Source: Paecilomyces variotii (Eukaryota). Taken from it: a stretch of DNA of 64,000 nt. A model generated the notes under the pieces. It was not told the origin of the DNA. It saw nothing but the letters and a program-made list of their open reading frames with translations, and did no database searches. The first letter of the stretch is position 1. Each line of letters starts with the position of its first letter. The stretch lies in assembly GCA_004022145.1 (NCBI GenBank), contig RCNU01000011.1; one strand, written 5' to 3'. The position numbers were made by a program, and so were the translations under genes. Positions 15,910 through 22,426 of the stretch are shown here, one piece after another.

Positions 15910-17883
15910 ATGGCCTCTCCAGGGCAGGCTCCCGATTTCCAGAGCATCACCGCCCTGATCAAGACGCTTACCAATGTTCAACTGAAGGATATCCTCCGAA
16001 ACGAAGGCCTCACCGTTTCTGGCGTTAAGGTGTCGCTGCAGCTCCGCATTATTGACTGTCAGTTTATCAACCCAACACACCACTCCCCTCGTCCTTGCCT
16101 TGAAAACCCCTCTACCTTGTTCCTTCTCAGACTCGATTCCTTCGCTCCAGGCTTACATTTGCCGCTTGCTAACGTGCTGGATAGATATTGAGAGACTCTA
16201 CCAAGGCGGACATATCGATCGCTATAATCAGCTCAAAAAGTTCATCTATGCCACTGCTCACCGGTCCCTGCCTAGCTCTCTGAGTCTGTCGCCATCAGCA
16301 CATCCAAATAATCCTAGTTCCACACTCCAGCCCACCTCTGCACAGAGTAGGCAGTCCTCCCTTGGGTCAGGGATGACATCACAACCATTCTCGACAGGTA
16401 GGTCTATGCGCCTGCCGTTTTGTTCGCATTAGCTCACTATGCTCCAGGCCGTTTGACTTTCAAAGATAGTCCATTTTATACCATCCTAGAGCCTCTTACC
16501 CCGACTATGGAATGCAAAGGTGTGAGCGCATTCTGTTAATCCTTCAAAGAACTGAAGTGCTGATGAAATCTCCAAGTCCGAGAACATACAAGGGATAGTG
16601 TCGAACTTAGGGTGGTTCTTAACACGTCTGTTGCTGCAAAACTACAGAATGATCCGAACGTTAGAGTAATGGTCTACTGCGCCGCAGATACTGGTCTCAA
16701 TCAGTACTCGAAATCAGACATTGCATTTCCTCATCAGGTTGAATTAAAGGCGAATCTCGACGAGGTTAAGGCAAACCTCAGGGGCCTCAAGAACAAACCT
16801 GGGTCAACAAGACCAGCTGATGTGACAAACCATATCCGGAAAAAGCCAGGCTATCCTAACCATATTGTCATGACATACGCCCTGACCCAGAAGGCAAGTA
16901 TTTCCCCCACGGCCAAAAGCAGTATCAACAAGTGTACAGTGGTGTTTTATGCGTGTCATTCTGCTAACCTCCCATACAGAAGTTTTTCGTTCTCGTAAAC
17001 CTAGTTCAGCGACATCCTGTTGAGGAACTCGTGGCAAAGCTGAAAGCGAGAAAGACCATCTCCAAGGAACAGGTAGTCCGAGAGAGTGCGTTATATTTTC
17101 CCCGGAATCATGCTCTTTGCTCTGACCTCTTCTAGTGAGAAGCAGAGCGGAAGACTCAGATATCATCACGACTTCCAGCATTATGTCCTTAAAATGCCCC
17201 CTATCGACCCTGAGGATCGAGGTCCCATGCCGATCGGTCATATGTACCCACAACCAATGCTTTGATGCGTCTTCCTTTCTTCAACTACAGGAGCAAGCAC
17301 CTACCTGGACGTGTCCTGTCTGTAACAAAGCCACGAGCTTTGAATCATTGCAGATTGATCAGTATGTTATCTCTTTTCCCAATTCGAAATGCGTGGTTAG
17401 ATCTAACAGGCTAGATATGTGGACGATATACTCCGGTCTACTCCCCCAGAAGTCGATCAAGTCATAGTAGAGCCCACTGGCAAATGGTCGAATCCAAAGG
17501 ACGAAGAATCAACACCACAGGGTGGTGGAGTGACACCCGCCACTGATGACGACGATGACTTAATAGAGATTAAAGAACCCTCCACGGTGCCGTTAAAACA
17601 GGAACCCCTTCCAGTGCATATTACACTGCAACGGACACCTGCGCAGTCACGGGAGCCATCGACTACCTCGTCTGCTACGAGACCATCATCCAACAAACGA
17701 TCAGCCGCCCAAGTGATCGATCTCACAGGCAGTGATGATGAGGAAACTCCACCTAGGCAACCAAAGAGGCAGGCTCTTAGTCTCCCGGGCCAATTGTTCC
17801 CTCAACACAGATTGCAGGGCTCTTTTGGCCACACTTCGGGGAACGGGGCGGACTCGAATTTCTCTTACCAAAACGGCTTCTGA
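15910..17883 (+). CDS. sizA: SUMO E3 ligase, Siz/PIAS family (SAP, PINIT, SP-RING/MIZ zinc finger)
   Basis: SAP-like LTNVQLKDILRNEGLTVSGVK; PINIT-like IAFPHQVELKAN...NKPGSTRPADVT; SP-RING SLKCPLSTLRIEVPCRSVICTHNQCFDASSFLQLQEQAPTWTCPVC; SIM VIDLTGSDDEE. Contains a GC-AG intron at 16894-16979. Confidence 0.92.
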
Positions 17884-18681
17884 GTCCCCCCTTCCCCGGA
17901 GGACAGCCACTTACATTACCTCGTGATCTGATACAATTATTCATGGTTATACGGCGCGCATGGTCTTTTATGGCGTTAGATGGTGCCGGAAAACGGATGA
18001 TCTACGGATATTTTCTTAAGGTACTGATTACCGCTAGGATGGTTGGTGATTGATTTCGGTCAAGCACTGGAGTACTTGTCCCCTTTCAGACATGTTAGCT
18101 GCATGTCATTAATCTTCTTTGACGACTGCTAGCGCGGGAGCATAACTGAAGATGGCTGATAAGTCCCGAGTTTCTTTCATGACCTGATGATCAATCGTGC
18201 TATATTCTCTGTAGATAAACAATTATACCAAGAACTCTGGTTTTGCAATCGATTTCTGGGCTGTCTCTACTGCAGTAATCTGAATGGAACTAGTACGCTG
18301 TCTTTATCTACCTACCTAGGTAGGCACCTAGGTATCTAGATACTAAACTACTGCGGGCAATCTGCCGAGGCCGGGGCTAAAGGCTAAATTCACCTACCCA
18401 CTCATTCCGGACCCCGTAAGTACCAGTGCCTAGGCGTTAATATTATTTACTAGGCCTAGGTACTACTGATCTCCGCGACATCACCTCAGGTACCTACTAC
18501 GAACAAGCGCGACAGTGGTGTGTCACAAGGGAACCAGAAGAGAACAATTTTTGTCCGCGCTGCTGTCTGACCTAAATCCAGGCGGGCTTTCCGCCTCATC
18601 GATGATCTCGGGGGTAACTCTACCGCCCATTCCACCACCGTCACTCGCGTCTCGCACCATACTACCTCATACCCCAATCCA

Positions 18682-19563
18682 ATGTCTTTCGATACTCCGT
18701 TACCTCCATACAGCGCGTCTGATCCTCACGCCCGATTCTTAGGCGCATCATGCCTCGATCTGCTTCTTATAGAGATTGTGCCGATGGCGGAGCGTCTGGT
18801 GCGGGAACTATCGACTTCCGAGGACGGCATGGATGACGAAGAGCAAAAGGAAGCGACGTTTTTTCGTCTGGAATCATTAGGATACAGAGTCGGACAAGGT
18901 CTTGCTGAGAGGTGAGAGAGAGAGAGGAGAGAGAGAGAGAGCATGTGCTGTCCAATGTTCCTTTGAACATGAACAACACAGCCTGACCCTCCCCCCTCGC
19001 GAGACGAGTTGATAAGCAGGACTCAATTCGCAACCTGCGCTTATCGTTCGTATGCTGACTGACTGGTTTCGATTTTTCTTTTCAAAATAGATTCTCTCGA
19101 GATCGACCGCGATTCACAGATAACCTCGACGTCATCAAATTCCTATGCAAAGATCTATGGACGATTCTGTTCAGGAAACAAGTGGATAATTTGAAAACGA
19201 ACCACAGGGTGAGAATGAGCGCCCGGATGATATGACAGAGCTGGAATGTCGAATATACGGGGGCTGACATTGACGTCCAGGGAGTCTTCGTTTTAACTGA
19301 TAATTCCTTCCGGCCATTCAGCAGGATGAGTATGGCCGTACGGAGTGACGCCGTCGCAAGAGCCCAAGCCGTGAGATCGCCCATCTAAGCAGACCACATT
19401 TGAATTGCCAGGCTAACTAACGTTTGCTTAGTATTTATGGTTCCCGTGCGGTGTAATACGCGGCGTGCTGGCCAGCATGAATATAAATGCTACAGTACAA
19501 GCAGAAACGTCCGATCTACCGGGGGCGACCTTCCAGATCAAAACCATCCTTCCAAAGCCGTGA
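18682..19563 (+). CDS. trs33: TRAPP complex subunit Trs33 (Bet3 family)
   Basis: Spliced sequence [16 protein letters not shown] / [39 protein letters not shown] / [10 protein letters not shown] / [11 protein letters not shown]...[10 protein letters not shown]. Confidence 0.9.
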
Positions 19564-19844
19564 GCTGCTGGACAGACTTCTCGCGCGCTTTCATTTACAC
19601 ACTATAGCCTGATGACATATGGAGAGACGAGTGGGAACGATGGAGTTCATGATTTAAAACTCATGCTAGTTTTCTAATTTTCGGCGAGACCCCGCTTAAA
19701 CACACGTCTCCAGAAGTTTGAGCTGTTAGAAATTACAGATAAGGGAGGGCCTCCCGATTCTGTTCTCTGAATTCAACTATCGGCTGTCTTAAAACGCCTT
19801 CGTGACAATTCATTCAATGGTTCATCGTGTCAAGGACCTAATAC

Positions 19845-19851
19845 TCAAAGC
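19845..19851 (-). other. Predicted alternative terminal micro-exon of MDH (G-CTT-TGA) giving C-terminal PKL
   Basis: Donor GTAAAT at 20017 overlaps the AAG-TAA stop. Branch GCTAAT at 19879-19874. Acceptor GATAG ends at 19852. Confidence 0.75.
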
Positions 19852-20013
19852 CTATCTTCCCAGCGTAGCAGCCATTAGCACGAATCCTCCGAACAGCTTT
19901 GGGAAATTCCATTGATGACACTTGATGGGGTTGAATATATGTTATGGTGATACAGGAAACAATGAATCTAGGGAGGATGCACTGAGAGATAGCCAGCGAC
20001 TGGGAGTGGATAT

Positions 20014-21431
20014 TTACTTTGGGGGAGGGTTGTTGACGAAGTCAATGCCTTTCTCAATGTTGCCCTTGAGGCCCTTGATGGCAGCCTCCAACAGCTTCTT
20101 CTCCTGGTCGGAGACGCCCTCGAGGATGTTGACAGCCTTCTCAGCACCGTTGGCCTTTTCAATGGTGTTAGCATTGTGAACCCGAAATCAATGAGCGTCA
20201 TTGAGGATCTACTTACTCCCAATTCCACGGGGACGGAGAAGAACTCAACGCCAGTCTCCTTGGCAATAGCATCACCGCCAGGGACACCAGGCAGGTAGAC
20301 GTAAGTAGGCTCTAGGATGTTCTTCTCGCCCTTCTGAGCCTTAATGACACTCTCGGCAAATCTACAAAAACCGTTAGCGAACAGCTCATCATTGACTGGA
20401 AAGCTGGGTGTCGCACCTGAAACCAGCATAGGCCATGGAGAGGGTGGCAGAACCAGCACCATCCTTGGCCTTCACGACCTCGTCACCGCCAAACTGGACA
20501 CCTTGTTCATAGTCAGCTAAATGAATTCTGGAACCTCGCCTTTCAGGTGCACTTACGGTTCACCAGAGCATCGTACTTGTCTGCAGGGATCTGGAAAGAA
20601 GGCTTGGCCTTGCTGAAAAGAGGGACAATGGTCTCTCCGGAGTGTCCACCGACAACGGGGATGAAAGTCTGGGATGGGTCTGCCTGACCACTGTACTCCT
20701 GAACGAAAGTCTCGGCACGAACAACATCCAGGGTAGTAACACCAAAGAGGCGCTTGGGGTCAAAGACGCCCGCCTTCTTCAGGACCTCTGCGGCAATGGG
20801 GACGGTGGAGTTGACAGGGTTGGAAATGATGAGGATGAAGGCCTTGGGAGCAAAGTCTGCGATGCCCTTGACCAGGGTCTGGACAATGCCAGCGTTGACC
20901 TTGAAGAGGTCATCACGGGTCATACCCGGCTTTCCTGTACGGAGAAATCAGTCAGAGCTCGAGCTGATACATATACAGCGTCCAATGGAGGGAGACTAAC
21001 GGGGAATGCCGGCTGGGATGACGACAATATCAGCGCCAGTAAGGGCATTCTTGAGGCCATCATCCTTTGGCAGGAAACCAGAAACCTTCTGTTCAGATGT
21101 GAGCGCCATGAGCAAGCAGAAGGAGTGGTGAAGGAATACGTACGGCTCTGGAGGAGATATGAGAGAGATCTGCGGCAACACCAGGAGTGTTCACCACATC
21201 GTAAAGACCGAGCTCATCGACCAGAGGGCTGGCTTTCAGGAGCAGAGAAAGAGGCTGTCACGGCGCAAGGTCAATCAGCGGATTATTCAAGAGATTGACA
21301 ACGGTATAGAGGATCGATTCCTACCTGGCCGATACCACCAGCAGCTCCGAGAACGACTGCGAGTTTGTTATGTTAGCAGCTGCATGGCTACTACAAACTC
21401 AGAGAGGGAAAAACCAACCTGCTTTAACCAT
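20014..21431 (-). CDS. mdh: NAD-dependent malate dehydrogenase without mitochondrial presequence (cytosolic/peroxisomal type)
   Basis: [86 protein letters not shown]. The unspliced 3' end reads FVNNPPPK* (TAA at 20016-20014). Confidence 0.95.
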
Positions 21432-22426
21432 GATGAAGGAGTCTGAAGGGTTCGTTTATAATCTGGTTGTACGGGTTGGATGTCAGTAGAGGAAGCAGGA
21501 GGAAATGATGGATGACAGCAATGTTGACGGGAAACCCGAGGAGCTCGAAAAAGGCGGGGTGGGAGGAGGAGAGGAGGGGCACTGCGGCCAGGGACCAAGG
21601 GAGGAAGGCACGCGGCTGATCGGATACGTAGACTAAACGCCGCAACAGAGGACGTACCAAGAGGACAGGCAGCAATTGGGATGGTTAATTATGTCGTGTT
21701 GGCTTCTGCTTGACTGCCAACCTTAAATCTGACTTAATATGGTGGGAGGGGACTACGAGTATATATATACCTATATATATATATATATGCATTATTTCCA
21801 GGACAAAGGGAAGGCGATCGGGAACGGACAACGTGTGGGGTTGACGGGTGCGGGCGAACGCTCGCTGGACCATACCAATGGTAGATACAGCACAGAGGCA
21901 ATTGTTACGAGCTTTCATGGAGGCTTGTGTCATCGCGGTCTTGGACCTCTCGCCAATAACGAGGCTGACTCTCTTTCATGACCCATCCTGTCATCGGGTA
22001 AAGGCGGATGAGGTTGGCAGTCTACGGGAATGGCACGGAAGAGAGCTTACTAGGGGATTCACAGATATTGGCAAGTCCCGAGGCAGATCAACTCCGTCCA
22101 TGGCAAGCCGGATGGAGCTCCCGACCTCGGCCAAATACATATGTAATACCATGCTTCAACGGTTGGCCTATTTTCCGTGACGGAAGAACAAAAAAGAAGA
22201 CACTGGATTTTCGCCCAGACACCGACAATGAGGACCCAACAGGACAATATCTAAGTCACACTGAGACTAGATTCAAGGCATGTCTTGTCGCCTTTCGTTC
22301 CATTACACCACCCCTAGAGGGACGTGACCCAGTAACAGCCAGCCTGGTGACTTCCCTGAATATGCCACCCTTCCGCTGGATTTTTTCCTTTTCTCGGATT
22401 GTTTTGACGGTCGGTTGAAAATGTGT

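Follow-up and report, generated by a model that had tools for sequence, protein, structure and literature searches.

The malate dehydrogenase (MDH) gene of Paecilomyces variotii gives rise to three mRNAs and two proteins through a terminal intron that is either retained or removed at one of two acceptor sites. The gene is located on the minus strand of the window, which here denotes the whole stretch of 64,000 nucleotides (contig RCNU01000011.1) that was analysed. RNA contigs show three mRNA forms and fix their boundaries exactly, and related loci show that the design is conserved. We propose, with a probability of about 0.75, that processing of the terminal intron has three outcomes and that a minority of the enzyme, ending in PPPKL, would be directed to peroxisomes via Pex5, with the rest staying in the cytosol. 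An event of this kind is not new and has been described for the orthologous gene, the MDH of Aspergillus fumigatus (Hurtig et al. 2020).

Translation of the exon model (Table 1) yields an NAD-malate dehydrogenase of 330 aa with the C-terminus ...FVNNPPPK. The model shares 327 of its 330 residues with the closest database match (P0001), a protein of Paecilomyces variotii that is recorded as 'hypothetical protein', contains the Pfam domains Ldh_1_N and Ldh_1_C and ends in PPPK. The protein database search was performed using MDH exon 5 as the query and was restricted to longer proteins. The next-best matches with this query came from Thermoascus, Rasamsonia, Talaromyces and Aspergillus, and proteins of the A. 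fumigatus group showed 86% identity over exon 5. The best matches were proteins of Eurotiales and Onygenales, several of which their sources call 'malate dehydrogenase, cytoplasmic'. The seven constitutive introns of the gene are 55–70 nt long, and all of them carry G at position +5.

The donor of the terminal intron overlaps the end of the reading frame. The G of GTAAAT is the last base of the final AAG codon, its TAA terminates the reading frame when the intron is retained, and position +5 is occupied by A, in contrast to G in 7/7 constitutive introns. Removal of 166 nt joins 20018 to 19851 and produces AAG CTT TGA, and the protein then ends in ...PPPKL. The preliminary description of this DNA had predicted exactly this gain of one Leu upon removal of 20017-19852, and translation bore it out; the positions that it had assigned to the AAG and TAA codons, the donor, GCTAAT, GATAG and G CTT TGA all agree with the minus-strand sequence, in which G CTT TGA directly follows the GATAG ending at 19852. 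It had missed the proximal acceptor, an AAG at 19858-19856 that is the first AG past the branch site and lies 4 nt ahead of the distal TAG. Removal of 162 nt at this site produces AAA TAG, and the translated product, ...PPPK, is identical to the protein of the intron-retained form. The TAG at 19854-19852 has two roles, as the distal acceptor and as the stop codon of the proximal isoform. GCTAAT probably serves as the branch point, in which case the branch A would precede the proximal acceptor by ~19 nt and the distal one by ~23 nt.

Table 1. Coordinates of the MDH gene and of its terminal intron in the window (a slash marks the cut at an acceptor)
Feature	Position	Strand	Basis or remark
Malate dehydrogenase (MDH) gene, lacking an N-terminal presequence	20014..21431	-	Open 993-nt CDS, 8 exons
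MDH exons 1-4	21431-21419, 21356-21325, 21254-21144, 21088-21001	-	Exon model
MDH exons 5-8	20934-20557, 20501-20417, 20361-20217, 20154-20014 (including TAA)	-	Exon model
Final Lys codon AAG	20019-20017	-	Sequence
Stop codon TAA of the retained form	20016-20014	-	Sequence; inside the donor
5' splice site GTAAAT	20012..20017	-	Sequence; both RNA joints begin at 20017/20018
Long intron, distal acceptor, 166 nt	19852..20017	-	GT..AG joint in RNA contigs of X3 and X13
Short intron, proximal acceptor, 162 nt	19856..20017	-	Joint in RNA contigs of X3, X13 and X9
Putative branch site GCTAAT	19874..19879	-	Sequence and CTAAT alignment block
Tandem acceptors AAG/ATAG/	19852..19858	-	Sequence and RNA joints; proximal AG ends at 19856, distal AG at 19852
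Start of the 3' exon of the distal isoform, G CTT TGA	19845..19851	-	G completes AAG; CTT = Leu; TGA = stop
MDH mRNA, two sites of poly(A) addition	~19796 and ~19653	-	Loose T-runs in X9 contigs

The chance frequency of this arrangement was estimated from 5000 dinucleotide-preserving shuffles of the 446 nt located 3' of the stop codon. At least one AG acceptor yielding K-L/M-stop was present in 355 of the 5000 shuffles, a chance rate of 7%, and a tandem pair giving K-stop and K-L/M-stop as in the window was present in only 3. The terminal-splice motif by itself is weak evidence, and it is the RNA that lifts the case above chance. A second K-L acceptor, located 409 nt 3' of the donor, was rejected as a chance occurrence, in agreement with the 7% rate in the shuffles; it lies past both poly(A) sites and has no supporting joint among the RNA contigs.

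A peroxisomal form could also be imagined to arise by readthrough of the stop codon, in the style of mammalian MDH1, instead of splicing. Readthrough is a known source of PTS1 signals in mammalian MDH1 and LDHB and in fungal PGK according to Stiebler (2014), and the leaky stop context given there is TGA-CT, whereas that of the present gene is TAA-A. The in-frame extension past the TAA comprises 24 residues and ends in ...FPVSP, which is not PTS1-like. Readthrough was rejected as the source of a PTS1 on account of this extension end and this stop context, and we consider it extremely improbable. Alternative splicing of the terminal intron is the preferred source of the PPPKL form.

RNA data were available from 20 runs that contain the stretch, and four of them (X1, X3, X9 and X13), one per study, were compared; all consist of contigs and not reads. 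Joints of the constitutive introns were present in the same runs (7/7 in X3 and X9, 6/7 in X13), and X3, which is labelled 'RNA?', is shown by these joints to be RNA. The junction of 20018 with 19851, which the preliminary description had predicted, was present in the contigs of two studies, with the segment 19852-20017 skipped at a depth of 28.9 in X3 and 100.9 in X13. This distal joint was not seen in the contigs of X9 or X1, and as contigs drop rare variants, its absence from these runs does not follow. The proximal joint, which skips 19856-20017, had a depth of 62 in X3, 155 in X13 (2 contigs) and 60.8 in X9, and the proximal acceptor is used at least as often as the distal one. The retained intron was represented by contigs unbroken over 19826-20046/7, with depths of 88 in X3, 93.3 in X13 and 125.3 in X9. 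Contig depth places the share of the distal form at ~16% in X3 and ~29% in X13, with none seen in X9, and these shares are rough because each contig has one depth figure and the joint contigs have short sides. Read on the minus strand, the skipped segments are all bounded by GT and AG, and they are therefore part of the MDH transcript and not of the transcript of the convergent neighbour.

These results modify one claim of the preliminary description, in which the retained and the spliced mRNA stood for two different proteins. Retained and PKL-coding mRNAs are both present in the RNA, and to this extent the claim stands; the 162-nt splice, however, also gives PPPK, and owing to this acceptor 4 nt upstream, 'spliced' is not equal to 'peroxisomal'. 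Polyadenylation always upstream of the 19852 acceptor, which would have spoken against the proposed splice, is not what the contigs contain: poly(A) ends were found at 19796 and 19653, both 3' of the acceptors, and the genome has no A-run at either position. The alternative poly(A) sites in X9 give 3' exons that extend ~56 and ~199 nt past the distal acceptor. The metatranscriptome X1 contains the whole gene as a single unspliced contig of 3167 nt at a depth of 65 (19631-21600), which means DNA carry-over or abundant pre-mRNA and is uninformative on splicing.

Both joints might instead be assembly artefacts, arising from chimeric or collapsed short contigs of an mRNA that is never spliced at this place. 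All four runs are represented by Logan contigs and not by reads, and the joint contigs, which have 29-30 letters on their shorter side, carry the flag 'between: not known'. Such an origin would nevertheless have to reproduce exact GT..AG ends, on the strand of the gene and at the predicted bases, for both joints, and to do so repeatedly, as the distal joint recurs in two studies and the proximal joint in three. Joints of constitutive introns occur alongside, several of them in X13 with equally short sides, and environmental transcripts from relatives contain spliced forms of both kinds. The counterpart in A. fumigatus was published from RNA-seq reads (PMC7491326). An artefact is accordingly judged very improbable, and genuine splicing at both acceptors is retained as our reading.

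Database proteins record the same alternative ends. The C-termini of 120 listed matches were surveyed, and the 110 that keep the C-terminal helix were used as the full-length set; among these listed matches, 96 end in K, 12 in K-L and 2 otherwise. The K-L group includes proteins of Histoplasma (PPTKL), Coccidioides (PPQKL), Malbranchea, Monascus and several Aspergillus species (PPPKL). Both versions are on record for Monascus purpureus (PPPK and PPPKL) and A. udagawae (TPK and TPKL), so the splice is already modelled in some annotations. The expectation that an ORF-based annotation would miss the isoform is thus correct for P0001, with its PPPK end, and too broad for the orthologs in general, 12/110 of which already end in K-L.

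Environmental relatives were collected by scanning metagenome contigs with P0001 as the query, which returned 80 loci. The 38 loci below 70% identity were set aside as probable paralogs or distant MDHs, and the 42 loci with at least 70% identity were analysed; one of these stops short of the C-terminus, and 41 were hence assessable. Thirty of the 41 loci encode a K-L/M-stop end or reach such an end via a terminal splice, although many loci are near-duplicates and the set corresponds to ~10 independent lineages, not thirty. Fourteen are unspliced, with a donor formed by the stop together with the G that ends the last AAG, and with acceptors 4 nt apart (NAG/RTAG/ as in the window) that give K-stop and KL-stop; four are unspliced with a single acceptor giving KL-stop. 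Seven are apparently spliced at the proximal site (AAR TAG), and there the next TAG would give KL-stop (4) or KM-stop (3), the K-M ends from the distal site being SKM or PKM (L004, L023 and L025). Five have the K-L end within the record itself.

The remaining 11 loci do not fit the design. L008 and L037, which are one sequence present twice, have tandem acceptors with the distal product KLERSVI-stop, the stop after Leu having been lost. The distal site gives KF-stop in L017, L012 reads KLTRS-stop, and L010 has TAA in place of the distal TAG. Nothing comparable to the tandem design was found in L005, L015, L020, L026, L027 and L058. Judged from these sequences, L008/L037 and L010 look like lineage-specific losses.

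The length of the intron ranges from 47 to 270 nt in the fitting loci. An alignment of the window with L001, L002, L016 and L019 showed that only the donor, CTAAT and the 3' block TAG/RYTNTRR are conserved, with little similarity elsewhere in the intron. The conservation among relatives that had been anticipated for the 3' ends of orthologous genes is thereby found, both in the fit of 30/41 loci and in this 3' block. The window and its nearest relatives have GTAAAT or GTAAAG as donor and introns of 136-171 nt. A near-consensus donor (GTGAGT, GTAAGT or GTAAGC) together with a short intron (47-88 nt) is present in L011, L013, L021, L055-L057, L066, L069 and L073. From this contrast in donor and intron length, the balance between retention and splicing may differ between lineages. 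Among six weaker loci, a K-L acceptor is present in L028 and an SKL end in L030, L033 and L036, and L029 and L031 have neither. L034 resembles the species of the window itself, and its sequence ends ahead of the acceptor.

The proposed mechanism begins with the donor over the stop codon. The unspliced mRNA ends in ...PPPK-TAA and encodes the cytosolic enzyme, and much of the mRNA would be left in this state by the weak donor. When the intron is removed, one branch site would be shared by two rival acceptors. Choice of the proximal AAG rebuilds the last codon as AAA with TAG immediately after it, giving ...PPPK, and choice of the distal TAG, 4 nt further on, rebuilds AAG and adds CTT-TGA, giving ...PPPKL. 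The PKL end would then be recognised by Pex5, and a minority of the enzyme would be imported into peroxisomes. Incomplete and variable splicing is in keeping with the A at +5 that weakens the donor, with an intron that exceeds the others two- to threefold in length and with the presence of two competing acceptors. In both spliced forms the stop codon would be a few bases past the junction, with no exon junction expected 3' of the stop.

The classical PTS1 consensus is S/A/C-K/R/H-L/M, and a Pro at -3 is outside it. The PTS1 predicted here, PKL, differs from this consensus at -3. In Histoplasma, a related fungus that also belongs to the Eurotiomycetes, mNeonGreen-PKL was sufficient for peroxisomal localisation (mBio 2026, PMC13343957), and three proteins end in PKL in the tables of that study. 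We infer that the PKL form would be imported in a Pex5-dependent manner and would help to re-oxidise NADH inside peroxisomes or take part in the glyoxylate cycle; the redox-shuttle role that the preliminary description had assigned to the PPPKL isoform is likewise plausible. If import holds, a single MDH gene without a presequence could serve peroxisomes and re-oxidise the NADH of beta-oxidation.

It is also conceivable that the splicing is real and that PKL has no role in targeting. The intron would then act at the RNA level, through 3' UTR length, export or stability, or its splicing would be noise, and the additional Leu would be a tolerated by-product. That the most used splice, the proximal one of 162 nt, alters no amino acid is what such an explanation would predict, and the K-L/M-stop outcome is indeed absent in 11/41 related loci. 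A neutral by-product, however, would not readily account for a frame after the distal acceptor that is kept as R, then YTN or ATG, then stop in 30/41 loci while the length and the sequence of the intron drift, or for a tandem design with such a coding outcome that arose in 3/5000 shuffles. Published work bears on both sides. In the searched supplementary tables of the peroxisome proteome of Histoplasma, malate synthase is the only entry retrieved by 'malate', and MDH is not listed (PMC13343957), and Yarrowia lipolytica without the peroxisomal isoform had no growth phenotype according to PMC3372373. Against this, the sufficiency of -PKL as a PTS1 comes from the same Histoplasma study, and yeasts in which the intron is lost have two genes, one of which is PTS1-ended, as described by Hurtig et al. 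(PMC7491326). An exclusively RNA-level or neutral origin is therefore considered unlikely, and peroxisomal targeting of the PPPKL minority remains our preferred reading.

Two extensions of the targeting reading concern the use of the acceptors. The three-way choice might act as a regulated dial, in which growth conditions, for example fatty acids or acetate, alter how often the weak donor and each acceptor are used and thereby set the peroxisomal share of MDH; this is tentative, and we regard it as somewhat doubtful. The proximal acceptor could be kept as a decoy that caps the peroxisomal share. It is retained in 14/18 unspliced relatives that have a K-L acceptor, though it leaves the amino acids unchanged.

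Paecilomyces and Aspergillus belong to one order. The closest known system is the MDH of A. fumigatus, for which Hurtig et al. (RNA 2020, PMC7491326) describe three mRNAs. The one that keeps the intron is the most abundant and is the annotated form; use of a proximal AAG acceptor leads to a protein identical to that from retention, and use of a distal UAG, 4 nt further on, extends the protein by one residue to a 'putative' PTS1. The two cases share the orthologous gene without a presequence, the same three mRNAs and acceptors 4 nt apart in that account, and they differ in genus and in the tail, which is NTPPK(L) there and NNPPPK(L) here. The arrangement was inferred by these authors to be ancestral to Saccharomycotina and A. 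fumigatus, and they argue that gene duplication took over from splicing in yeasts (PMC7491326). The added value of the present analysis is modest, namely that independent RNA data confirm the A. fumigatus event in another genus of Eurotiales. It also extends to environmental relatives, in which the combination of a donor over the stop codon with tandem acceptors is widespread, including K-M variants and a few apparent losses. Adding the PPPKL isoform is a useful correction of the annotation and not a discovery.

In Y. lipolytica, the last intron of MDH2 has two 3' splice sites 4 nt apart, and the distal one makes a PTS1, as in the present gene; the isoform from the distal site was located to peroxisomes by YFP fusions, and the mechanism was termed an 'exclusive innovation' (Kabran et al., DNA Res 2012, PMC3372373). 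Both forms were reported on all carbon sources, with ratios from 0.9 to 5 (PMC3372373). The Yarrowia products end in ...AN and ...AKI, the account by Kabran et al. includes no retained-intron form, and localisation was shown there. In the Paecilomyces gene, by contrast, the donor overlies the stop codon, so that retention also leads to a cytosolic protein. Passages on MDH in the reviews PMC3798809 and PMC8124512 mention Y. lipolytica alone for MDH splicing, and those in the review PMC9549241 name no fungal case.

Other systems reach a comparable outcome by different means. Saccharomyces cerevisiae has near-identical enzymes for the two compartments, the cytosolic MDH2 and the peroxisomal MDH3 ending in SKL, encoded by two genes in contrast to the one alternatively spliced gene here; MDH3 is described as part of a malate/oxaloacetate NADH shuttle (PMC3798809, PMC9549241). 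Cryptic PTS1 signals of fungal GAPDH and PGK arise via alternative splicing or readthrough (Freitag et al., Nature 2012), and there too a minor isoform of an abundant cytosolic enzyme gains a PTS1 that is hidden from the annotated ORF, although the enzymes are other than MDH. A small share of mammalian MDH1 likewise acquires a PTS1, by translational readthrough at UGA-CU (Stiebler 2014; Hofhuis 2016), whereas readthrough of the present gene yields no PTS1.

The genes that neighbour MDH in the window were also recorded. The convergent neighbour contains a 61-nt GT..AG intron at 19371-19431 (+) with the branch region CTAACTAAC, and a joint of 19370 with 19432 is present in RNA contigs of X3 and X9, with flanks covering 19341-19370 and 19432 onward. 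A contig extends without a break over 19432-19851, and MDH and the convergent gene therefore abut or overlap at their 3' ends. One upstream reading frame of this neighbour (18571-18915) has a weak, below-cut-off Pfam match to a TRAPP component (E 4.8e-4). Upstream of the TRAPP-like gene, the reading frames at ~16567-17467 (+) have Pfam matches to PINIT (E 6.7e-32) and to the MIZ/SP-RING zinc finger (E 1.5e-23), which identify a gene for a Siz/PIAS-type SUMO E3 ligase.
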